Assembly: GCA_035650735.1 (NCBI GenBank)
Contig: DASRGZ010000011.1
Coordinates: 1 to 50,509, forward strand
Reading direction: 5' to 3'
DNA length: 50,509 nt
Source: Chthonomonadaceae bacterium
GTDB lineage: Bacteria; Armatimonadota; Chthonomonadetes; Chthonomonadales; Chthonomonadaceae
Shown in pieces: positions 1,931-49,401 of this stretch. The notes under the pieces are model-generated. The model searched no databases. It was not told the DNA's origin and saw nothing but the letters and a program-made list of their open reading frames with translations. Position 1 is the first letter of the stretch. Each line of letters starts with the position of its first letter. A program made the position numbers and the translations under genes.

Positions 1931-2066
1931 GACCCTAACCCTCCGGTACCGCTCCCGGTTGACCTAACCCCCCGTTCCCTTCCCTCGTAGGGAAGGGGGT
2001 GACCCGGCTTCACCTTTCCCCTCTCCCGCAGCGTGGGAGAGGGGTGGCCGCAGGCCGGGATGAGGG
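1931..2066. repeat. REP-like composite palindrome (family A)
   Basis: GACCTAACCCCC, CCTTCCCTCGTAGGGAAGG and CCCTCTCCCGCAGCGTGGGAGAGGG hairpins, ending TGAGGGC; same modules at 5876, 20077, 38715. Confidence 0.85.
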
Positions 2067-4706: not shown

Positions 4707-5835
4707 GCGTTTCTCCCTGCGCCTGCTGCATCATCGCCACAAACTGTCGGAAGAAGTAGGCGCTGTCGGTCGGACCGGGGGATGCTTCCGGGTGGTACTG
4801 GATCGAGAAGATGGGCAGTTCCCGATGCCGCAACCCTTCGACGGTGCCGTCGTTGAGATTGATGTGGGCGACCTCCATACCATCCTGGAGGCCGTCGGGA
4901 TCTACCGCGTAGCCATGATTTTGCGACGTGATATAGACCCGCCCGGTCGTCAGGTCTTTGACCGGGTGGTTGCTGCCACGATGTCCAAATTTTAGCTTAA
5001 AAGTGCGACTTCCGAACGCATAGCCGAGGATCTGGTTACCCAGGCAGACGCCCATGATAGGCTTCTTGCCGACGAGAGCGCGCACCGTATCTACGATATA
5101 GCCGAGCTGCGCCGGATCGCCGGGGCCGGGCGAGAGCAGGATCCCGTCGGGATCGGCGCGCAGAATTTCAGAGGCCGACGCCGTACAGGGGTAGACCGTC
5201 GTTTCGCAGCCAAGATGGGCCAGGTTGCGGAGAATGTTGTACTTAACGCCGCAGTCAAGCAGCGCGACGCGCAGGGGCGGCTCGGAGCGTTCTATGGACT
5301 CCGCCTCCACTTCATGGGGCCAATCGGCCTGTACCGGCCAGCGGTAGGGCTGCTCGGTGGTCACTTTGCGCACGTAGTCCACGCCGGCGTAGTCGGGTGC
5401 CGCCTTCAGACGGGCCAGAAGCTGCGCGGGCGTATCCTCGGTGGAGATGGCGCCCATCATCACGCCGCGCACGCGCAGGGCGCGGGTGAGGGCGCGGGTA
5501 TCCACCCCCTGGATGCCGACGACGCCCCGCTCCCGGAGAAACGCATCCAGGCTTTGCGCGGCCCGCCAGTTGCTCGGCACATCGGCGGCTTCCCGCACGA
5601 TGAAGCCTTCCACCTGCACGCGCCGCGACTCGAAGTCGTCGGGATTGATGCCGTAGTTGCCGACCAGAGGATAGGTCAAGGCGACGATCTGCCCCGCGTA
5701 GGACGGATCGGTCAGTATCTCCTGGTAGCCGGTCATGCCCGTATTAAAGACGACCTCGCCGTAGGTGCGTCCCGGCGCGCCCAGCGACTCGCCCTCAAAA
5801 ATCGTCCCATCTTCCAATGCCAGAATAGCTCTCAT
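4672..5835 (-). CDS. carA: Carbamoyl-phosphate synthase small subunit
   Basis: GEVVFNTGMTGYQEILTDPSY, GVCLG, SQNHGYAVD, QYHPEASPGP. Confidence 0.97.
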   Translation of the reverse strand: MRAILALEDGTIFEGESLGAPGRTYGEVVFNTGMTGYQEILTDPSYAGQIVALTYPLVGNYGINPDDFESRRVQVEGFIVREAADVPSNWRAAQSLDAFLRERGVVGIQGVDTRALTRALRVRGVMMGAISTEDTPAQLLARLKAAPDYAGVDYVRKVTTEQPYRWPVQADWPHEVEAESIERSEPPLRVALLDCGVKYNILRNLAHLGCETTVYPCTASASEILRADPDGILLSPGPGDPAQLGYIVDTVRALVGKKPIMGVCLGNQILGYAFGSRTFKLKFGHRGSNHPVKDLTTGRVYITSQNHGYAVDPDGLQDGMEVAHINLNDGTVEGLRHRELPIFSIQYHPEASPGPTDSAYFFRQFVAMMQQAQGETHANPESSSEPR

Positions 5836-5875
5836 ACTTCCCCTAGTAATCTCAAGCTTCCTTCTCTCGTGTGTT

Positions 5876-6232
5876 ACCTAACCCCCCGGCCCCCTTTCCT
5901 ACAAGGGAAGGGAGGGACCCGGCTTTTCCTCTCCCCTCCCCTGTTCTTGGGGATCGCTAGGCGGAGTGCCGAACCGTTATAGGCCCGCCCCTGGCAGTGG
6001 GATAAAGGGGTGGGGGCCGCTCCCCTCTCCCGCAGCGTGGATCGCCAGGCGGAGGGGTGTGGCAAGGCAGAGCCGTGTCGCAAGGCGGAGGCAAGGGCCG
6101 TACCCTTGCCGACCCTGGCAGTGAGGCGAACCATGGTAGCCCCGACCCTTGCAGTAGGGGCCGGGGTGAGGGCGCCCCTACACCCTATACCCTACTCCCT
6201 ACACCCTGCATGAGGGGCCGGGGGTGAGGGCC
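5876..6232. repeat. REP-like composite (family A) with nested 45-nt cassettes and a heptamer tandem repeat
   Basis: Family A hairpins interrupted by TCGCNAGGCGGAG...CCCTNGCAGT units (5954-5998, 6042-6155); five CCCTRYW-like heptamers at 6176-6210. Confidence 0.85.
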
Positions 6233-6247
6233 ATGTCTGCTTCCTTT

Positions 6248-6988
6248 TTATGTGCGTGCAACCGCGACCAACCGCCGCGCCGTGTGGTCGTAGGGTGAGC
6301 CGGAGAGGTCGCCGTAAATCTCGACATCCCGGAAGTCATACTCTTTCAATAGGGCGTAGAGTTCCGCGCCCGAGTAGAGGCGGTGCGAGACGGTGAACTC
6401 GCGCCGCGCATTCCCCTGGATGACGATCCAGCGCCCATCTATCCAGCTCCAAAACCGGCTGATCTTCGGTTCTTGCAGGAGCAGCACGCCCTCCTTCTCC
6501 TCCCAGAACCGTTCGCGAAAGTTGCGCGCGAGCACCTCCTTGCCCACAATATCCATGACCAGCGTCCCGCCCGGCTTGAGGGAGCGGCGCAGGTTGGCGA
6601 TCACCTGGCCGTCGTCGGCAGGGTCTTCAAAGTAGCCGAACGACGTAAAGAGGTTGATGGCCCCGCCGAACGCCTCCGGGCGGCAGAATCGGCGCATATC
6701 TTCTTGAACGAACTCGACGTTCAGCCCCTCGACTTCCGCCTGAGCGCGGGCCTTTTCCAGGTGCGCCGCCGTCCTGTCCACGCCGGTAACCTGGTAGCCG
6801 CGCCGCGCCAGCTCGAGTGAATGCCTGCCGGGGCCACAGCATAGATCGAGAATGGCCGTGCCCGGTTCCAATCCGAGCAGCGTCAGCACCTGGTCCACTT
6901 CCGCAGCGGTCGCCGCCCAGCGTTTCTCATCGAACATCATGGGCGCCGTCGCCTCCCAGAAGGCGTCCAGGTCGTACCAGTCGGTCAT
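6248..6988 (-). CDS. Class I SAM-dependent methyltransferase
   Basis: ILDLCCGPGRH motif I, VTGVD, INLFTSFGYF, LKPGG; ATG (MTDWYDL) 2 nt after the upstream stop. Confidence 0.9.
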   Translation of the reverse strand: MTDWYDLDAFWEATAPMMFDEKRWAATAAEVDQVLTLLGLEPGTAILDLCCGPGRHSLELARRGYQVTGVDRTAAHLEKARAQAEVEGLNVEFVQEDMRRFCRPEAFGGAINLFTSFGYFEDPADDGQVIANLRRSLKPGGTLVMDIVGKEVLARNFRERFWEEKEGVLLLQEPKISRFWSWIDGRWIVIQGNARREFTVSHRLYSGAELYALLKEYDFRDVEIYGDLSGSPYDHTARRLVAVART

Positions 6989-6990
6989 GG

Positions 6991-8631
6991 CTAGTCCAGC
7001 GCTTCCCCGCCGTACAGGCACTCGCCGCCCACGAACGTCGCCTCCACGCGCACGCGCTCCCACTCGTCTACCGGTGTAGCCGTCGGGTCGGCGGTAAGCA
7101 GGGCAAAATCGGCCCACTTGCCGGCCTCGATGCTTCCCCGGTCGCGCTCGGTGCGGGTTGCGTAGGCAGGCGCGGCGGTATAAGCGTAGAGCGCGGCCTC
7201 CGCAGAGAGACGCTCGGCGGCATTCAGGATGCGCCCGCCCGGCGTCTTGCGCTCCAGGGCCGCGCGCAGGCCGTCCAGCGGTGCGCCCGGCACTACCGGA
7301 CAGTCCGAGCTAAACGCCTGCGCGACGTTATGCGCATCCAGGGAGGCGTAAGGCGAGAGGCGATTGGCGCGCTCCTCGCCCAGCGCCATCACATAGGCGT
7401 CGCCCAATCGCAGGATAAACTCCGGCTGGCCGATGCTCCAGATGTTCTGTCGGCGCAGGCGCATTATCAACTCGTCGTCCAACAGCATACAGTGCTCGAT
7501 GCGGTGGCCGGGGCGGTGGCGTGTGCGCTGGCGCTGCGCCTCTGCGTAGGCGGAAAGAACCAGGTTGATGGCGCGGTCGCCGATGGCGTGCGTGGCTATC
7601 TGCCAGCCCGCGTTATGCGCCAGACGGATAAGCTCGCGCAGCTCGTCCGGTGGATGCAGGGGCATCCCGAAGTTGTCCGGCATGCCCTCAAAGGGCCGGC
7701 TGAGCCAGCAGGTGCGGGTGGTGATAGCGCCATCGGAGAAGAGCTTGGCCTGCCCGACGTGCAGCCGATGCCAGTTAATGCCCAGGCCGGTCGGCTGTAG
7801 GTCGTCAGGGCCGGGCACGTTCTTCCCTCCCGCCTGCTTGACCACCTCCGCCCAATTAATCATGCAGGTTGCCCGCACCTGCAAGGCGGCGCGCTCCACC
7901 GCCTGCCGGTAGAGGTCTACATCGCTCGGCTCGGTATTGGCGTCGCTGGCGCTGGTGATGCCGCGCTCCAGCAGATAGCGATTGGCGCGGCCCAGGGCCT
8001 CCACGGCCTCGGCGGGCATCACTTCCGGCAGGATCTTATCCAGGTCGTTCCAGCTGGCCGTCTCCAGCAGCACGCCCGTCGGCTCGCCGCGTGCATCCCG
8101 CACGATCTCGCCGCCGACGGGGTCGGGCGTGTCGCGGGTGATGCCCAGCCGCTCCAGCGCCTTGCTGTTGACGACGGCGGCATGGCCGGAAGTATGGACG
8201 ATGCGCACGGGCACCTCCGCCGAGACCCGATCCAGGTCGTAGCGCGTGACGTGCTGGCCGCCCGGCAGCGCGTTTTGATTGTAGCGGTTGCCCTGCACGC
8301 ACGTCAGATCCGGCTGCGCTTCCAGCCGCTCCCGCAGCAGGCGCACGATGTCTTCCTTATCCTTGACCGGCGGAGAGGAAAGGTCTACGTGGCCGAGGTT
8401 GATGCCCAGCCACAGGATGTGCATGTGGCAGTCGAAGAAGCCGGGAAGGAGCGTGCGCCCGCGCAGGTCTATCACGCGCGTCGCCGCGTCCGCCAGGCTG
8501 CCGACCTGGCTATCCGTCCCGACCGCCAGGATGCGCCCGTCCCGCGCGACGGCGACGGCCTGCGCTTTCGGCTGCGCCGCATCCATCGTCAGGAGGTTGC
8601 CGTTCTGTAAAATCAAGTACGCCAGTGCCAT
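6991..8631 (-). CDS. Amidohydrolase family 3 (YtcJ-like)
   Basis: DLRGRTLLPGFFDCHMH, KLFSDG, HAIGD, RIEH, SSDCPV. Confidence 0.9.
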   Translation of the reverse strand: MALAYLILQNGNLLTMDAAQPKAQAVAVARDGRILAVGTDSQVGSLADAATRVIDLRGRTLLPGFFDCHMHILWLGINLGHVDLSSPPVKDKEDIVRLLRERLEAQPDLTCVQGNRYNQNALPGGQHVTRYDLDRVSAEVPVRIVHTSGHAAVVNSKALERLGITRDTPDPVGGEIVRDARGEPTGVLLETASWNDLDKILPEVMPAEAVEALGRANRYLLERGITSASDANTEPSDVDLYRQAVERAALQVRATCMINWAEVVKQAGGKNVPGPDDLQPTGLGINWHRLHVGQAKLFSDGAITTRTCWLSRPFEGMPDNFGMPLHPPDELRELIRLAHNAGWQIATHAIGDRAINLVLSAYAEAQRQRTRHRPGHRIEHCMLLDDELIMRLRRQNIWSIGQPEFILRLGDAYVMALGEERANRLSPYASLDAHNVAQAFSSDCPVVPGAPLDGLRAALERKTPGGRILNAAERLSAEAALYAYTAAPAYATRTERDRGSIEAGKWADFALLTADPTATPVDEWERVRVEATFVGGECLYGGEALD

Positions 8632-9961: not shown

Positions 9962-10692
9962 CTACGCCATTCCCCACTCTTTCAGCACATCTCGCAACGG
10001 CGGCAGGGGATTCTGCCACAGCCACCCCACGCGCAGCCAGAAACCGTTCAGGATACCACTGCGATAGATACCGTCCTCACCGACCGGCACGCGCTGATAG
10101 GTTCCCTGCGGGCCAAGCTGATAGAACTCCGCCTCTTTGCGTTTGGGATCTATTATCCAGTATTCGGACACGCCTCCCCGCTCGTATTCGCGGAACTTCT
10201 CTTCCTTATCTACCTTGCGACTACCCGGACTGATGACCCCTATCACGAGGTCGGCAGGACCATCCAGATAGCCGTCTCTCATACGATGCAGGTTCTCGTT
10301 AGCGACAAAGAGAATATCGGGCGACCGTCCGGGCAGTCCGGCCCCGAGCTTCATGTTGTATGGTTCCTCGCCGATAGCTCCGCACGAGTGAACTTCCACA
10401 AATTCGGAGAGCAGTCGTACTAGTACTCCTTTACTCCTTCAAGGTAGAAAGTTTGTATGGGTAATGAGATAAGCCTAGCATTCCGTCTATCTCAAGGCTA
10501 TGCCAACGTTCTACCTGGATGGACTACTAGGAATCTGCGCACATCCTGATGCTGCTTGGTTACCGGCCTCATGGGGACGACCTCTCCGTTGACCCACTCG
10601 ACGTGCTGGTTTTCGCCCGGCCAATCGAGAAACTCCTCGTAGGTCATCTTGCCCAGAGACGGCGGCGCGATTGATGTTACGGATTGTGCCAT
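9962..10692 (-). pseudogene. Uma2/DUF820 family endonuclease interrupted by a 103-bp insertion
   Basis: N-fragment MTYEEFL..EWVNGEV..HQ and C-fragment PDILFV..DGPADLVIGVISP..EYWIIDP; removing 107 nt restores an in-frame 207-aa ORF (RRFLVRLLSEFVEVH). Confidence 0.9.
10424..10526. mobile_element. Non-autonomous MITE-like hairpin element with CTAG target-site duplication
   Basis: CTAG at 10420-10423 and 10527-10530; imperfect inverted ends TACTCCTTCAAGGTAGAAAGTT / TAGTCCATCCAGGTAGAACGTT; about 43% GC by my count. Confidence 0.8.
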
Positions 10693-16003: not shown

Positions 16004-16132
16004 TAGACAGGATTAACGGGATTTACAGGATTACAGAGAGATAGAGAAGCCTTGTTGACAACCCCGCCTTAAGTGCGCCTCGCAGAGAGAGCTGTGTGGT
16101 GGAAATCCGGTTAATCCCGTTAATCCTGTCTA
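16004..16132. repeat. Family B long palindrome
   Basis: TAGACAGGATTAACGGGATTTACAGGATT ... AATCCGGTTAATCCCGTTAATCCTGTCTA inverted arms. Confidence 0.85.
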
Positions 16133-17966: not shown

Positions 17967-17972
17967 TCTTTA

Positions 17973-18142
17973 AATCCACCGATTACACCGATTGACACAG
18001 ATTAAGCTAAAAACCTAAACACGGATGGGACGGATCGGACGGATAACACAGATTAAAGCCTCTTATCCGTTTGATCCGTGTCATCCGTCTAATCGGTGTT
18101 TCTCTGTCTTTAATCTGTGGTAATCGGGGTAATCGGTGGATT
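17973..18142. repeat. Family B nested long palindrome (about 170 bp)
   Basis: AATCCACCGATTACACCGATT...ACGGAT x3 / ATCCGT x3...AATCGGTGGATT. Confidence 0.85.
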
Positions 18143-18169
18143 CTATCAACTTTATTGACAGGTGGAGAC

Positions 18170-20076: not shown

Positions 20077-20349
20077 GCCCTCACCCCCTAACCCCCTACT
20101 GCCAGGGTCGAGCCTCAACGGACTGCAAGGGTCGGGGCTACCATGGTTCGCCTCACTGCAAGGGTCAGCAAGGTTACGGCCCTTGCCTCCGCCTTGCGAC
20201 ACCTTGCGACACGGCTTTGCCTTGCGACAGCCCTCCGCCTTGCGATCCACGCTGCGGGAGAGGGGGAACGGTCAAGTTGGGTCAACCCCCTTCCCGTAGG
20301 GAAGGGGGCCGGGGGTTAGGTCAAGAAGGGACAGGGGACAAGGGGCAGG
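20077..20349. repeat. REP-like composite (family A) with multiply nested 45-nt cassettes, between convergent genes
   Basis: Three ACTGCMAGGGTC ends (20098, 20122, 20155) and four CCTTGCGA ends (20192, 20202, 20220, 20238) inside a CCCTCTCCCGCAGCGTGG hairpin. Confidence 0.85.
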
Positions 20350-26522: not shown

Positions 26523-26606
26523 GCCGGTTATAGGCTTTCATAGAGGCATAGGAAGACGGGATTTTCGCCAAACTTTTTTTGCGTGAATAGGTATTTTTGC
26601 GCGGTT

Positions 26607-26622
26607 TGGCATGGAATTTGCA
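26607..26622 (+). promoter_or_regulatory. Sigma54 (-24/-12) promoter, module 1
   Basis: TGGCATG-GAAT-TTGCA fits TGGCACG-N4-TTGCW; same position in module 2. Confidence 0.75.
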
Positions 26623-26647
26623 AGGCAGCTCCATGGAAGTGGTTTCT

Positions 26648-26757
26648 GCTCAGGATGTGTCAGGCACCGGGCAGAGCCCCTCTGAGTTTCTGCCGCCTGG
26701 ATGTAGCGCGCTTCTGCCTCCTGGTTGGGTGGCACCGCACGAGGCCGAAGCGCTCTC
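26648..26757 (+). ncRNA. Candidate structured 5' leader RNA, copy 1
   Basis: Highly similar to 28013-28120; two predicted hairpins (TCAGG/CCTGG; GCGCTTC..GCCTC/GAGGC..GAAGCGC). Confidence 0.4.
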
Positions 26758-26802
26758 GCCTGGCCAAAGAAACAAATCCTTGAAAGGAGCGTGTTGACAA
26801 AC

Positions 26803-27180
26803 ATGCGAAACAAATCTTCCGTGTCGCTAGGACGGATGGCGCTAGCCTTCATTGCCGTCCTAGCTGTCGCCGGGCCGGGCCTGCTGTTTGCCCAGGGCCC
26901 CGGCACCGTCTATGCGACCCCCAGGATCGCCGACATCCTCGGCCCGGCTTCCGTACCGGCAGGGGGAACAGCCACCTACCAGTTGGAGGTCATCTTCAGC
27001 GATAACACGCGGGTTACTGTGCCGAATCCGACGTTTACGGCCCGCCTGGGATCGTTCTCCGGAGATACCTATACCGCGCCGAGCCCGGCCCCCGCGAATG
27101 GGCGCGACCTGCTAACGGGTACCTTCAGCAACGCCCAGGGCTCGGTCAGGGCTAACAGGCTCATCACCATTACCCCCTAG
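26803..27180 (+). CDS. Small secreted beta-rich hypothetical protein, copy 1
   Basis: Signal peptide (..LFA-Q), AAGGAG RBS, paralog at 28169-28570. Confidence 0.85.
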   Translation: MRNKSSVSLGRMALAFIAVLAVAGPGLLFAQGPGTVYATPRIADILGPASVPAGGTATYQLEVIFSDNTRVTVPNPTFTARLGSFSGDTYTAPSPAPANGRDLLTGTFSNAQGSVRANRLITITP

Positions 27181-27273
27181 CGTTGGGGCAGAGAGCCTGT
27201 TTTCCTAGAAGAACAACAGGCTTCTTGATGTTTTTGCAATGCCTTTAAACCCACTGTGAAAGGGATTGGTAAC

Positions 27274-27741
27274 ATGAAACTTAAGCTCACGCTTGCCACT
27301 ATGGCCCTGGCTCTGTTCGGCCCGGTAGCGGCGTATGCAGGCATCAACGACGTCACGATTTCCCTGGCTCCGGTGACGGATAACACCGTCTTCAGCGCCA
27401 CGTTTACGAACACGCTGGCCACGCCGGTGACCATATCGGCGAATAGCATCTCGCCCGCGGCGGATTCGGATGATCTGGCGGATAGTCTCTTCAACAACGG
27501 CCCGCTGACGCTGGCGGCTAACGCTGTCAGCAGCCCGTTTAATTTTGATTATACGACCCCCATCGGCAGTATCAACGATATCACGTATGCGGTCAAGGAT
27601 CCGAATAACGTGATCATCGGCTGCACGGGGCCCGGCTGCGCCAACATCGTTGTTATCCCGGAGCCGGGAAGCATCGCGGCGCTGCTGGTAGGCACGACGA
27701 TGGGCGGAGGGCTATTGCTGGCGCGTCGCCGCCGCAAATAG
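27274..27741 (+). CDS. PEP-CTERM sorting-domain protein, copy 1
   Basis: Signal peptide (AAYA), C-terminal IPEPGS + hydrophobic helix + RRRRK. Confidence 0.92.
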   Translation: MKLKLTLATMALALFGPVAAYAGINDVTISLAPVTDNTVFSATFTNTLATPVTISANSISPAADSDDLADSLFNNGPLTLAANAVSSPFNFDYTTPIGSINDITYAVKDPNNVIIGCTGPGCANIVVIPEPGSIAALLVGTTMGGGLLLARRRRK

Positions 27742-27774
27742 GCTGCGCCTTCCGAAGTAGCTGCCCTCAACTAG

Positions 27775-27810
27775 AGCGGCCGGGGAGCACAAGTTCCCCG
27801 GCCGCTTTTT
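27775..27810 (+). terminator. Rho-independent terminator, module 1
   Basis: AGCGGCCGGGGA..TCCCCGGCCGCT followed by T-run. Confidence 0.9.
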
Positions 27811-27971
27811 GTGTCTGTATATCCCGCCCCGCGCTCTCACCTGCCCCGCCATCAGAACGGCGTCCCCATCCCTGCAATTCCCTCCACGCGCGTGCCCTCT
27901 CGGCAGAAAGCGCTCAGGCTTTACCGGCAAAAATACCGGTTTTCGCGGCCACACGCATTCTTGCGAACATT

Positions 27972-27987
27972 TGGCCTGGAAGTTGCA
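27972..27987 (+). promoter_or_regulatory. Sigma54 (-24/-12) promoter, module 2
   Basis: TGGCCTG-GAAG-TTGCA. Confidence 0.68.
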
Positions 27988-28012
27988 GGTCCGCAAGCAG
28001 GAAGCGGTTGCT

Positions 28013-28120
28013 GCTCAGGATGTGTCAGGCACCGGGCAGAGCCCTCCTGGGTTCTTGTCACCTGGACGTCACGCGCTTCTGCCTCCTGGTTGGGTGGCAC
28101 CGCGCGAGGCCGAAGCGCTC
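28013..28120 (+). ncRNA. Candidate structured 5' leader RNA, copy 2
   Basis: Conserved with copy 1 while the flanking non-coding DNA has diverged. Confidence 0.4.
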
Positions 28121-28168
28121 GGCTCAGGCTGCAAGGACCAACCTCGCGAAAGGAGCGTGTTGAACAAC

Positions 28169-28570
28169 ATGCGCAAATCTACCTCTCTGTCGTTGGGCCG
28201 GGTGATATTGGCCTTGATTGCTGTGCTGGCCGTGGCCGGTCCGGGCCTGGTGTTTGCCCAGGGCCCCGGGGCCACCTACCCGACCCCCAGGATCGCCGAC
28301 ATCCTCGGCCCCAGCGCTGTGCCGGTCAACGGCACCGCCACCTACCAGTTGGAGGTCATCTTCAGCGATGGCTCGCGCGTTATCGTGGATCCGAACGCCA
28401 CGTATTCGGCACGGCGCGGCACCTTTGGCTCCGATACGGCAGCGGGAGCTCCCTACACCGCCCCGAGCAGCGTTGGCAATGGCCGGGACCTGCTAACGGC
28501 TGTCTACAGCAACAGCCAGGGCTCGGTCAGGGCCAACCGAGTCATCAGCATCACCGGCGCTATCCCCTAG
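28169..28570 (+). CDS. Small secreted beta-rich hypothetical protein, copy 2
   Basis: Shares TPRIADILGP, TATYQLEVIFSD, NGRDLLT, QGSVRANR with copy 1. Confidence 0.85.
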   Translation: MRKSTSLSLGRVILALIAVLAVAGPGLVFAQGPGATYPTPRIADILGPSAVPVNGTATYQLEVIFSDGSRVIVDPNATYSARRGTFGSDTAAGAPYTAPSSVGNGRDLLTAVYSNSQGSVRANRVISITGAIP

Positions 28571-28663
28571 CCCGGGGGCCGAGAGCTTGTTTTCTTGCCG
28601 GAACAACAGGCTTTTGGTTGAGTTTGCAGTACTTTGAGACCCACTGGGAAAGGAATGTTTGCT

Positions 28664-29125
28664 ATGAAACTTAAGCTCACGCTTGCCACTGTGGCCCTGG
28701 CTCTATTCGGCTCGGTAGCGGCGTATGCTGCTAGCCCGAATGATGTCCAGATCACCCTGTCTCCGGTGACAGATAGCACAGTCTACAGCATGGTTTTGCA
28801 TAACACGCTGAGCACGCCGGTGACCATAGAGGCGGATAGTATCTCCCCAGGACCGGATACGGATCAACTGGCGGATAGCCTCTTCGACAACGGCCCGCTG
28901 ACGCTGGCGGCGCTGGGTACCAGCGACCCGTTCCAGTTCTCCTACCCCAGCCCTACCAGCATTGAGGATATCACGGTGGCCGTCAAGGCTCCCGGCGATG
29001 TTATCATTGGCTGCACAGGGCCGGGCTGCGTCAACGTCGCCGTCCCGGAGCCGGGCAGCCTGGCGCTGCTGGTGGGCGCGACGATGGGCGGAGGGCTATT
29101 GCTGGCGCGTCGCCGCCGCAAATAG
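28664..29125 (+). CDS. PEP-CTERM sorting-domain protein, copy 2
   Basis: Signal peptide, VPEPGS + TM + RRRRK; shares LADSLFxNGPLTLAA and IIGCTGPGC with copy 1. Confidence 0.92.
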   Translation: MKLKLTLATVALALFGSVAAYAASPNDVQITLSPVTDSTVYSMVLHNTLSTPVTIEADSISPGPDTDQLADSLFDNGPLTLAALGTSDPFQFSYPSPTSIEDITVAVKAPGDVIIGCTGPGCVNVAVPEPGSLALLVGATMGGGLLLARRRRK

Positions 29126-29177
29126 GCTGCCCCCTCGGAAGTCGCTGCATTTAAGAGGTGTAGCGGCTTCCAACAAG

Positions 29178-29213
29178 AGCGGCCGGGGAACTTGTGCTCC
29201 CCGGCCGCTTTTT
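29178..29213 (+). terminator. Rho-independent terminator, module 2
   Basis: Same stem as 27775-27810, with T-run. Confidence 0.9.
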
Positions 29214-29344
29214 CTGCTCTTTTGCGCTTGCATTATGAGGAAGGCCGGCTGCGCTGCCGCATCCGGGCCCCCGGAGAGCGCCACCCCGATAACCCCTGCT
29301 CCTGTTTGCTATGGCTTTTGGGCGTTCGCGCCCCCCGGAGGAGG

Positions 29345-32308: not shown

Positions 32309-32474
32309 AGAATCCACCGATTACACAGATTAAGGAAAAACCTAAACACGGATTAAACGGATGACACGGATGCAACGGATAAGGGTCTGGAATCCGTGGT
32401 ATCCGTTTAATCCGTCCCATCCGTGTTTCTCTTTGTTTTTTAATCGGTGTTAATCTGTGTAATCTGTGGATTCT
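32309..32474. repeat. Family B nested long palindrome between sbcD and sbcC
   Basis: AGAATCCACCGATTACACAGATT..ACGGAT x4 / ATCCGT x4..AATCTGTGGATTCT; same architecture as 17973-18142. Confidence 0.85.
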
Positions 32475-38714: not shown

Positions 38715-38950
38715 TGACCTAACCCCCCATCCCCCTTCCCTACCCGCTCGTACCTCGCTAGGGAAGGGGGGACCCGGCTTCTGCTCTCCCCTCTCCCGCA
38801 GCGTGGGAGAGGGGGGCAGGGGGTGAGGGCGGCAACCATCTCCGGTCGGGTCCCTCCCTTCCCTCTTAGGGTCGCTAGGCGGAGGGGCGAACCATTGCAG
38901 CCCCGACCCTAGCAGTGGGGGACGGGGGTTAGGTCAAGAAGGGACGGGGA
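38715..38950. repeat. REP-like composite (family A) with one 45-nt cassette
   Basis: TGACCTAACCCCC ... GGGGGTTAGGTCA inverted ends; intact CCCTCTCCCGCAGCGTGGGAGAGGG; cassette at 38872-38916. Confidence 0.85.
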
Positions 38951-46855: not shown

Positions 46856-47869
46856 ATGAATTTGCTCATCCTGGGCGGGACGGTGTTCGTGGGGCGGCAT
46901 TTGGTGGAGGCGGCTCTGGCGCGCGGGCATACGGTGACGCTGTTTAATCGCAGCCAGCACAACCCGGAACTCTTCCCAGAGGTCGAAAAGCTGCGAGGCG
47001 ACCGCGATGGCGATCTGGGCGCGCTGCAAGGACGGCACTGGGATGCGGTCCTAGATACCTGCGGCTATGTGCCCCGGATCGTGCGGGCGTCCGCCGAGCT
47101 ATTGGCCGATGCCGTCCCTCACTATACCTTCATCTCCAGCATTTCGGTTTACAAGGACCTCAGCATACCGGGCATGGATGAGAACGCTCCGGTCGGCACG
47201 TTGGAGGATGAGACGACAGAGGAGATCACCGCAGAGACCTACGGCCCGCTGAAAGTTCTGTGTGAGCAGGCGGCGGAGGAAGCGATGCCGGGCCGTGTGC
47301 TGACCATCCGCCCCGGCCTGATCGTCGGCCCGCACGATCCCACCGACCGCTTCACCTACTGGCCCCACCGCGTGGCACAGGGCGGCGAAGTTTTGGCGCC
47401 GGGCCGCCCCGAACAGACCGTGCAGTTCATTGATGCGCGTGATCTGGCCGAGTGGAATATTCGCTTGATAGAAGCCGGCCAGACCGGCGTCTATAACGCC
47501 ACCGGCCCGGACTACCCGCTGACGATGGGGCGCCTGCTGGACGAGTGCAAGGCCGTCGGTGGGAGCGACGCGCGCTTTACCTGGGCATCGCAGGAGTTTC
47601 TCCAGCAGGAGGGGGTTCAGCCCTGGACGGAGCTGCCGCTCTGGGTGCCCGAAGAGCCGGATATGGCGGGCTTTAATGCCGTCAATTGCGATAAAGCCAT
47701 CGCCGCCGGTTTAACCTTTCGGCCCCTCTCGGACACCATCCGGGACACGCTGGCCTGGGACGCGACCCGCCCCGCCGATAGGGAGTGGCGTGCCGGGCTA
47801 AAGCCGGAACGCGAGCGGGAACTGCTAGAAAAACCCTTTCAACAGGATGAACAGGATTTACAGGATTAG
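46856..47869 (+). CDS. NAD-dependent epimerase/dehydratase (atypical SDR)
   Basis: ILGGTVFVG, FISSISVY, YGPLK, RPGLIVGP. Confidence 0.9.
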   Translation: MNLLILGGTVFVGRHLVEAALARGHTVTLFNRSQHNPELFPEVEKLRGDRDGDLGALQGRHWDAVLDTCGYVPRIVRASAELLADAVPHYTFISSISVYKDLSIPGMDENAPVGTLEDETTEEITAETYGPLKVLCEQAAEEAMPGRVLTIRPGLIVGPHDPTDRFTYWPHRVAQGGEVLAPGRPEQTVQFIDARDLAEWNIRLIEAGQTGVYNATGPDYPLTMGRLLDECKAVGGSDARFTWASQEFLQQEGVQPWTELPLWVPEEPDMAGFNAVNCDKAIAAGLTFRPLSDTIRDTLAWDATRPADREWRAGLKPERERELLEKPFQQDEQDLQD

Positions 47870-47989
47870 GGCTAGACAGAGACAGAAGCCTTCCAGCCAA
47901 CGGAGTTAACAGAAACTCGGTTGGCTGGTTTGGTTTTAGAAATCCTGTTTAATCCTGATTAATCCTGTTCATCCTGTTGAAAGGGTTTT
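47830..47989. repeat. Family B long palindrome between convergent genes
   Basis: Perfect 29-bp inverted repeat 47830-47858 / 47961-47989 enclosing an inner hairpin at 47893-47928. Confidence 0.88.
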
Positions 47990-47994
47990 GTTTT

Positions 47995-49401
47995 TTAGGC
48001 GCTGGGGATACGGGGCAGCGTCCAGGGTTTGCGCGCGTCGCGGGTGAGCAGGATATTCGCCTCCCGGATCGGGCGCCCGTGCGCGTCCCGGCAGATCTCC
48101 CGCTCGCGGTCCCAGAAGAGCTTTTGCCCGGTACGGTAGGCGATATTGCCCAGGAAGCAACTGGTGGAGGAGCGGTGAGTGATCTCGACGTCGGAGGCGG
48201 GCAACGGGCGGATGCCGTTGCTGTCTTTGGGGCCTTTGACGCAGTCGAGGAAGTTGCGGACGTGCAGGTCTTTGCTATCGTAGCCGCTATGCTTCTCGGC
48301 GGGGATGCTGTTGCCCTCGGGATAGACCTCCCAGCCACTGCGATCCACAAAGAGCGTGCCGTTGGTGCCGAAAAACTCGATGCCGTAGCCGTGCCCATCC
48401 ATGCCGCGCCCGTTGCCCTTGCGCAGCGAGTAGACCAGCGTGAAGGGGCGATTGTTCACGCCGCCGCCTTTGGCGAACCCATAGACGACTTCCAGCGTGT
48501 CGGGGGTGTCGCGGTTATCCGGCAAGGCCCAGTGGCCGCCGCTGGCGCTGACGGTCGTGGGTGCGTCCACCTCCATCGCCCAGAGCGCGATGTCGTTGAG
48601 ATGCACGCCCCAGTCGGTCATCATGCCGCCAGCGTAGTCGAAGAACCAGCGGAAATTCCAATGGAAGCGGTTGGGATTGAAGGGGCGCAGCGGGGCCGGG
48701 CCGAGCCACATATCGTAATCCACGCCGGGAGGCGGGGCCGGCTGATCGGGCGGGTTGCCGATGCCGTTGCCCTCGTTGCTGGAGTTCCAGGTACGGACGA
48801 GGGTAATGTTGCCCAGCTTGCCGGACTGGATATACTTCACCGCCTCGATGAAGTGCGGGTCGGTGCGCTGCTGCGTTCCGCCCTGCACCACGCGCTTGTA
48901 ATAGCGGGCGGCGTTGACCATCGCGCGCCCCTCCACGACATTATGCGAGAGCGGCTTCTCCACGTAGACGTCCTTGCCGACCTGGCAGGCGTAGATGGTC
49001 GGCAGGGCGTGCCAGTGGTCGGGCGTGCCGACGATGACGACATCCACCTCCTTGAGGTCCAGGACGCGCCGCCAATCCTTGAGCGCCTGCGCGCCGGGGT
49101 TCTCGCTGGCCGCCTTATCCAGGTGGGCTTGATCCACATCGCAGAGCGCCACGACGTTGACTATGCCCGTTCCCTTGAACGCGCCCAGATTGCCCATGCC
49201 CATCCCGCCGCAGCCGATCAGGGCGATGTTGAGCTTTTCGTTCTGCGCTACGGGTTTGCGCTTCTTCGCTGGCTCGGCATGTACCGGCTGAATATCCAGC
49301 GCATTTGCCGCCGCCAGGCCGAGGCCGACGCCGGCGACCGTGCGCCCGGTCTTGCCGAGGAACTCCCGGCGTGAGATCGCGTCCCTCTCATCCCTATCCA
49401 T
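47995..49401 (-). CDS. Gfo/Idh/MocA oxidoreductase with Tat signal
   Basis: SRREFLG, IGCGGMG, TPDHWH, YVEKP, DWGVH. Confidence 0.93.
   Translation of the reverse strand: MDRDERDAISRREFLGKTGRTVAGVGLGLAAANALDIQPVHAEPAKKRKPVAQNEKLNIALIGCGGMGMGNLGAFKGTGIVNVVALCDVDQAHLDKAASENPGAQALKDWRRVLDLKEVDVVIVGTPDHWHALPTIYACQVGKDVYVEKPLSHNVVEGRAMVNAARYYKRVVQGGTQQRTDPHFIEAVKYIQSGKLGNITLVRTWNSSNEGNGIGNPPDQPAPPPGVDYDMWLGPAPLRPFNPNRFHWNFRWFFDYAGGMMTDWGVHLNDIALWAMEVDAPTTVSASGGHWALPDNRDTPDTLEVVYGFAKGGGVNNRPFTLVYSLRKGNGRGMDGHGYGIEFFGTNGTLFVDRSGWEVYPEGNSIPAEKHSGYDSKDLHVRNFLDCVKGPKDSNGIRPLPASDVEITHRSSTSCFLGNIAYRTGQKLFWDREREICRDAHGRPIREANILLTRDARKPWTLPRIPSA

Follow-up and report, generated by a model that had tools for sequence, protein, structure and literature searches.

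How do short sequences of nearly constant length come to interrupt the arms of repeat hairpins, and do they move in their own right? The question is raised by the stretch of DNA analysed here (the window; 50,509 nucleotides, contig C11 of a 6.5 Mb, 63% GC genome assembled in 224 contigs and referred to as G000). A sequence-only reading of the window had described four units of 45 nucleotides, and the coordinates and length of each were confirmed (5954-5998, 6078-6122 and 38872-38916 on the forward strand, and 20155-20199 on the reverse strand). The single unit at 5954..5998 (+), a covariance-model match of 58.2 bits, interrupts a host hairpin of DUF559 type on the same strand (5' arm 5933-5941, loop 5942-5948) within its 3' arm, which resumes at 5999; the two bases upstream of the unit, its tag, are GA (5952-5953, +). 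The single unit at 38872..38916 (+), also a model match, carries the tag GG (38870-38871, +) and replaces AA in a second DUF559-type hairpin, so that GGG-AA-GGGGG in the empty host becomes GGG-unit-GGGGG in the filled one.

The remaining two units lie within stacks. The left part of an interrupted host hairpin at 6023..6041 (+; 5' arm 6023-6031, loop 6032-6038, GGA at 6039-6041) is separated from its remaining 3' arm (6156-6159, +) by two 18-nucleotide left pieces of outer units (6042-6059 and 6060-6077, +, each with TG at its end), an innermost complete 45-nucleotide unit found by both the pattern and the covariance model (6078..6122, +), and a 33-nucleotide right piece (6123..6155, +) whose partner, a 10-nucleotide left piece, is missing here, leaving the stack unbalanced. 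The array at 20098..20245 (-) occupies a host of the same family, with left pieces of 18, 18 and 10 nucleotides, the core at 20155-20199, and right pieces of 33 and 24 nucleotides. As had been read, CGTGGA is the last host sequence ahead of the interruptions at 6042 and 20245, and intact hosts are present near 2019 and 38789, as paralogous empty sites at 2019..2043 and 38789..38813 (both +). The nested stacks are indeed nested arrays, but neither 6042-6155 (18+18 against 33) nor 20098-20245 (18+18+10 against 33+24) is a clean set of brackets; in both, deletion or recombination has probably rearranged the nesting afterwards.

A repeat mosaic and a SAM methyltransferase gene (6251-6988, -) together fill 5845-7010, between carA and the upstream gene. 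This block (approximate limits 5845-7010) is absent in two other genomes, G001 and G002, where the flanking genes are adjacent; the state there is absence of the whole region, not an exact empty site. In G001, the alignment of carA is broken by a repeat block of DUF559 type (L188:1437-1620); the stretch is about 111 nucleotides longer there than in the window, so that it is possibly an in-frame insertion in carA.

A hairpin of 44-45 nucleotides

A search of G000 for both end motifs returned 481 complete units with a one-piece pattern (352 of 45 nucleotides, 117 of 44, 11 of 46 and 1 of 43). When each left motif was instead followed to the next right motif, 491 spans were obtained, 317 of them of 45 and 109 of 44 nucleotides. 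The length mode anticipated by the sequence-only reading is therefore sharp genome-wide, but the true length is 44-45 rather than a fixed 45 nucleotides, and outside G000 the shorter form is the commoner (20 of 31 true copies, one chance row having been removed). A strict form of the pattern gave 285 matches in G000 and none with either the pattern or the genome reversed; chance is therefore excluded. Stepwise collapse of inner units resolved 702 units in 425 clusters, with 12 clusters yielding none. The arrays span about 40 kb, or 0.6% of the genome, and break its assembly, with unit motifs at 77 of the 448 contig ends.

From its 5' end, the unit consists of TC, a 6-bp outer stem (GCNAGG paired with CCTNGC, one mismatch tolerated), a 4x3 internal loop, an inner stem of 5-8 bp in which sequence is free and pairing is kept, and a 3-nucleotide tail, AGT; the positions of the ends are nearly invariant. 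Across 39 distinct variants, selected from 50 by removing false and odd-length ones, 94.6% of inner-stem cells pair, whereas the figure for shuffles is 78.7% and that for slid partners never exceeds 47.3%; because the variants are related to each other, these percentages are not probabilities. Pair 17-33 is formed in all 39, by four pair types, and the covariation score is 0.376 against no more than 0.091 for slid partners. Outside G000 the inner stem is frequently a perfect 8 bp, of differing sequence. Folding z-scores of single units are weak (-2.1 to +0.1), and the structure therefore rests on covariation. The middle of the unit does form a hairpin of its own, as had been proposed; the further proposal that it holds variable cargo is contradicted, the middle being a covarying stem-loop of fixed length. 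Near-invariant ends combined with a covarying inner stem fit recognition by a protein. A known structured RNA was rejected, since Rfam gave no match in window positions 5800-6300 at E values up to 1.

The unit carries no gene and amounts to a DNA hairpin of 44-45 bases, which very probably moves as a unit. The analyses support the sequence-only reading in part, namely as to a tiny gene-less element that targets structure and enters REP-like hairpins and its own copies without target duplication.

Joints, hosts and arrays

Because the hosts are themselves repeats, empty versions occur in the same genome as filled ones. In G000 the host seen at 2019 and 6023 is empty in 107 copies and filled in 42, the host type at 5933 gives empty/filled counts of 43/50 and 15/8, and the type at 38860 gives 46/23 and 9/20. 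Empty sites, the lack of which would have counted against the sequence-only reading, are thus numerous, as paralogous sites. An exact empty homologue was available for 73 of 202 distinct top-level flank pairs. The commonest gap, in 48 of the 73, was 4 bases, corresponding to 2 upstream flank bases plus 2 bases replaced by the unit; the other 25 pairs had gaps of 1-9 bases, many of them in G runs or at one GGCC-type site. Insertions of the unit into itself, which provide the cleanest test, lie at offsets 10, 14, 18 and 22 and gave left pieces of 10 (129), 14 (41), 18 (167) and 22 (20) nucleotides and right pieces of 33/32 (70/29), 29 (42), 25/24 (94/37) and 21 (24) nucleotides, left and right totalling 43 (42 for 44-nucleotide units). 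The innermost left and right pieces were partners in 195 of the 230 arrays having both. Since the piece lengths sum to 43 and the gaps between empty and filled sites agree, insertion on balance removes two bases of the target and duplicates none; the claim that target-site duplication is missing was thus correct, with a loss in its place.

The lost bases are mostly purine pairs (GA, AA, AG, GG) following G. The same rule was found in G010, where filled arms were compared with the empty arms of Y1 genes (L228/L232); in G001, by comparison with a DUF559 arm (L264); and in a third repeat family, filled at the metagenome locus L150 and represented in G000 by 22 empty copies. The copies do not count as independent events; they fall into about 13 site types in G000, with about 6 others outside it. 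No orthologous empty/filled pair between strains was seen among metagenome loci or in Logan contigs of 4 runs. The Logan contigs break at arrays; empty joints in them have about twice the single-copy depth and are for that reason read as paralogs. None of 10 patterns of excision scar occurred in repeat context among the matches listed, which fits copying in.

The two bases before the unit follow the target, yet are frequently altered. Target CG or CA becomes TG or TA, GG is kept or becomes GA, and AG and CC are kept; a C two bases upstream of the unit is usually now T. Over 971 left ends the tags were TG (472), GA (156), GG (136), CC (95), AG (61), TA (19) and CG (7). The change from CG to TG recurs at unrelated sites in other organisms, with two exceptions that retain CG. 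The change may have any of three causes: the donor brings its flank, mutation strikes the base at the joint, or copies whose joint is intact are cut again and disappear. Avoidance of a restriction site was rejected as the cause of the TG tag, CGTCGC (7571 occurrences) being no rarer than GGTCGC (7795).

Repeated DNA flanks the unit at 370 of 401 clean top-level sites, compared with 144 of 3000 random positions. With the array replaced by one fixed filler, the insertion point fell in a 3' arm at 313 of these 401 sites, in a 5' arm at 48 and in open sequence at 40, in agreement with the preference for 3' hairpin arms suggested from the window. The preference is not absolute, because self-insertion sites fall in the 5' half of the unit. 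GNA-type mini-loops were found on the unit's strand only at 238 of 468 sites and on the complementary strand only at 23. The unit inserts in a single orientation. Its target is weakly defined and rich in purines, mostly N-G|R-R, and the target 4-mers vary (CGGA, CGAA, GGAA, GGAG, AGGA, CGGG, CCGT). No replication-strand bias was detected (201 versus 187, a weak test on short contigs). The hosts do not form the single family first assumed; they belong to several unrelated repeat families. In relatives, the hairpins that serve as hosts in the window stand on either side of DUF559 genes (L260, L262, L264); other hosts are arms of Y1 transposase genes (L002, L228, L229, L232, L235). A single host site holds several unit variants.

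Among 497 arrays away from contig ends, a count made with a relaxed pattern that included some chance matches in coding DNA, 188 were single, 123 mirror-balanced, 176 unbalanced and 10 mismatched. Partners at offsets 10 and 18 were swapped in 32 of 230 arrays, the outer inner-stem arms were complementary in just 39 of 72, and each left piece, taken together with its tag, looks like a tandem copy of the start of the next unit. Unbalanced arrays would be explained by deletion between repeated ends and by exchange between arrays. Composites later spread and were reshuffled, and many identical ones were probably amplified along with their hosts.

DUF559-flanking hairpins (L257, L258, L259, L264, L267) also contain other short, variable loop inserts. 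At L257, a mini-hairpin of about 10 bases, beginning TGTC, is present in one flank and missing from the other. These loop inserts may be further micro-elements.

Candidate movers

A long copy whose ends enclose a transposase or recombinase gene, as the sequence-only reading would lead one to seek, was not found, either among orphan end pairs up to 6 kb apart or among genes between arrays. The orphan pairs, among the matches listed, were chance pairs, degenerate units and other small inserts, and the genes lying between two arrays, read by eye, were ordinary metabolic genes. Gene families enriched beside arrays were common enzymes only. Inspection by eye of 140 repeat-flanked ORFs revealed a few small nuclease-like genes, none of them flanked by the unit, and 49 ORFs beside copies outside G000 included no recurring mobile gene, one neighbour being an IS630-type DDE gene (L081).

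Searches of G000 by enzyme family gave three Y1 matches (one intact, one apparently frameshifted and one IS605-like with a stop codon), one GIY-YIG match within a 618-aa frame and one DUF559 match within a 1561-aa frame. G000 had no small GIY-YIG (Ssn) gene flanked by the unit, no reverse transcriptase, no IS110 (G001 also had none) and no IS91, for which the positive control was silent too. An integron attC cassette was rejected because G000 has no integron integrase, none of its eight tyrosine recombinases reaching the TIGR02249 cut-off. The covariance model found no unit beside 30 Y1 loci from five genomes (39 loci in all, in fragmented assemblies), eight tyrosine recombinase loci, 31 DUF559 loci or two IS110 loci (G010, G019). 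Several IS-like families in G000 are represented by termini only, common to 3-11 contig ends, with their coding parts unassembled; the absence of enzyme genes is weak evidence because the bodies of multicopy insertion sequences are missing from the assembly.

The reading we prefer, tentatively, is that of a non-autonomous micro-element which, once folded as a single strand, is recognised by an enzyme acting in trans and copied into repeats that are themselves folded. Strand asymmetry, the covarying stem and the hairpin hosts all point to recognition of a folded single strand. With similar reserve, we take the mover to be a Y1 HUH enzyme (a nuclease or transposase of the TnpA-REP or IS200 kind) encoded elsewhere, because TnpA-REP recognises folded single strands and accepts a foreign 3'-OH, and because many hosts are Y1 arms. 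The hairpins that TnpA-REP binds are folded single strands; it cleaves at dinucleotides on their 5' or 3' side, and the attacking 3'-OH that it accepts may be foreign (PMC8266576). A hairpin-binding enzyme would cut the target strand, the 3' end of the unit would be joined to the downstream target, and a second cut, or else 3' trimming, would cost two bases ahead of the sealing of the left joint. The donor would not be removed, or would be removed without a scar. Several observations count against this reading. Simple HUH strand transfer loses no target bases, and the two-base loss requires an extra step. The guide rule, as given in the part of PMC8266576 available to us, predicts a G|A cut when applied to the TGTC tag, and GA occurs in two target registers, giving no single junction. 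No Y1 gene is flanked by the unit in any of the 39 loci, G002 has Y1 genes (eight matches) and no unit, and the unbalanced arrays (176/497), the flank pairs with other gap lengths (25/73), the lack of replication-strand bias and the non-independence of the copies also count against it. The upstream change from C to T is not accounted for by it either.

It is also conceivable, if unlikely, that no dedicated enzyme is involved and that the unit is a parasite of repeat repair: nucleases of the hosts (Y1, DUF559 and others) would nick the repeats, the freed 3' end would be trimmed and switch template onto a unit, and copying would be followed by sealing through host repair or gene conversion. Such a process agrees with targets that are unrelated repeat families tied to different nucleases, with base loss and flank changes typical of repair, and with reshuffled arrays (the partner swaps, unbalanced stacks and poorly complementary outer arms counted above) in which a left piece and its tag resemble a tandem duplication. 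It accounts less well for two exact ends and a loss of two bases across many unrelated site types in several organisms, for unit ends that lack homology to most hosts, and for near-invariant ends with a covarying inner stem, which fit protein recognition. A different enzyme, unlinked or unassembled, is an equally doubtful candidate; it might be a single-strand GIY-YIG nuclease like Ssn, a DUF559-like protein, a nuclease with a 2-nucleotide stagger, or a reverse transcriptase that copies a short RNA from a primer in the target. A staggered cut would account for the two-base loss, the missing insertion-sequence bodies weaken the negative searches, and the order of tag (NNTC), stem and 3-nucleotide tail parallels CGTC-tagged REPs (PMC3733652, in part), which pair with Ssn nucleases (PMC11893778, in part). 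The stem sequences of the unit are, however, unlike the CGTC/NTS consensus in the published portion at hand, the GIY-YIG and DUF559 matches in G000 lie in large frames only, reverse transcriptase, IS110, IS91 (with its silent control) and integron integrase are absent from G000, and no unit stands beside 30 DUF559 and 2 IS110 loci.

It is highly improbable that the unit is merely a constant part of one repeat family, never mobile by itself and increased in number through slippage and passive copying. The many identical composites, probably amplified with their hosts, and the 110 same-organism metagenome loci without strain polymorphism would suit it, but the paralogous empty/filled pairs contradict it: the unit occupies three or more host families that are unrelated, and four positions in itself, each with abundant empty copies, several unit variants are found at one host site, and left and right pieces are coupled. 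A bolder reading, which we consider somewhat unlikely, would make the unit a member of an undescribed class of micro-element that parasitises mobile repeats by replacement, copying in, deleting two bases and altering the flank, with a chemistry unlike that of characterised transposases and an enzyme that reads hairpin shape across unrelated families.

Relation to known elements, and distribution

The unit is a REP-like non-autonomous hairpin element with an unusual, base-exact junction rule, and lies outside every family tested. Like the REP/REPIN-RAYT systems, in the parts of their descriptions available (PMC3116915, PMC8266576, PMC6006769), it is short, extragenic, present in hundreds of copies and strand-specific, with a folded single strand containing a bulged stem, no target duplication and a tendency to form mosaics; the high-copy extragenic hairpin with strand asymmetry that marks those systems is thus found here. 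In contrast to them, it lacks the GTAG/GTGG foot, its own foot being NNTC (971 left ends), it is a single hairpin rather than a REP/REPIN doublet, no flanked enzyme gene was found, and it enters repeats of other families and removes two bases. In layout the unit also recalls CGTC-tagged REPs and NTS/SRM repeats, in which an unpaired tag read TGTC or CCTC is followed by a stem and a 3-nucleotide tail (PMC3733652, PMC11893778, both in part). The CGTC tag itself varies to TGTC or CCTC (PMC3733652, in part), and these REP and NTS repeats pair with Ssn GIY-YIG nucleases, but stem and tail of the unit differ from the consensus in the portion of PMC11893778 available, and the unit has a second, covarying inner stem. 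In contrast to CGTC REPs, the target governs the two leading letters of its tag (TG, GA, GG, CC, AG), with CG in 7 of 971. REPs inserted in other palindromes have already been reported (PMC3733652, in part), and nesting as such is therefore known.

Recognition of a single-strand hairpin and lack of duplication are shared with IS200/IS605 peel-and-paste elements and their non-autonomous derivatives. These elements have a fixed tetra- or pentanucleotide target, lose no bases and bear two end hairpins, whereas the unit has one hairpin, a loose target and a two-base loss; an IS200/IS605 derivative was rejected because target 4-mers vary and two bases are lost. IS110 recombination retains a short core at both joints. 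The joints do not look like those of an IS110/IS1111 derivative, because in most site types of the unit the target dinucleotide is kept at neither joint (GT targets are ambiguous, as the unit ends in GT); as possible movers, IS110 and HUH enzymes are both still leads. Insertion into REP-like repeats without conventional duplication is common to the unit, to IS110/IS1111 and to ssr9, a module of ISPpu9 that has no gene and travels in trans with an IS110 targeting REPs (PMC12288879, in part); the unit differs in being only 45 nucleotides long and in having mutually unrelated hosts. IS200/IS605 elements, for their part, insert beside a guide-paired target (PMC8266576, in part). With DDE MITEs the unit shares non-autonomy, shortness and inverted ends, but its inverted repeat is subterminal and it makes no target duplication; a MITE was rejected on its net loss of two bases, a true MITE in G000 showing duplication of TAG/TAA.

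Among 42 genomes of the family, the covariance model detected the unit in four, namely G000, G001 (9 copies), G010 (7) and G019 (2), and it found none in 26 genomes from other families of the order or in 8 genomes of another class. A pattern search of 401 genomes of the phylum gave only background outside G000 (14 of the other 400 had 1-2 matches, the control level). Of 125 metagenome loci analysed (126 listed; L154 repeats L129), 110 were the G000 organism and showed no filled/empty difference; up to 15 were unmatched to G000 and had new middles with the same junction rule, although one of the metagenome loci, L120, may be unassembled DNA of the G000 organism. Viral contigs gave no match to the strict pattern, and 29 relaxed matches were judged to be chance, the inner stem being missing. 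A plasmid search gave no match, and no RNA holder of the unit was listed.

In the literature covered, we found no description of the unit or of a two-base replacement rule. For REP-like repeats, it is seldom that an inserted REP or REPIN can be studied with both its empty and its filled joint mapped. The unit offers joints exact to the base at about 19 site types, and from them a rule: two bases are lost, orientation is constant, the site is a 3' arm, and an upstream C becomes T. An enzyme proposed as the mover must reproduce that rule, so that a simple oligonucleotide assay becomes decisive. By exploiting itself as well as the arms of nuclease cassettes that are unrelated to one another, this 45-nucleotide element adds a second layer of parasitism.

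Other repeats were seen alongside the unit. The MITE, of about 100 nucleotides with TAG/TAA target duplication, is present at window positions 10421-10531 and has 11 matches genome-wide, 2 of which diverge after about 60 nucleotides; one copy lies within a unit (G000:C55, near 22170). At 16052-16091 the window has 40 letters in place of the 8 found in other copies of an AT-rich repeat family, the joint being present in all 4 runs, and this family recurs at about 1-170, 17970-18150, 32310-32470 and 47850-48000. In G000, GGACC/GGTCC is rare (7871) compared with GGATG (20516) and GACGC (25079), counts that suggest avoidance of a GGWCC restriction site. A tandem pair of paralogous genes lies at window positions 26605-29216; the two are spaced by about 1.39 kb and share blocks of 75-90% similarity.
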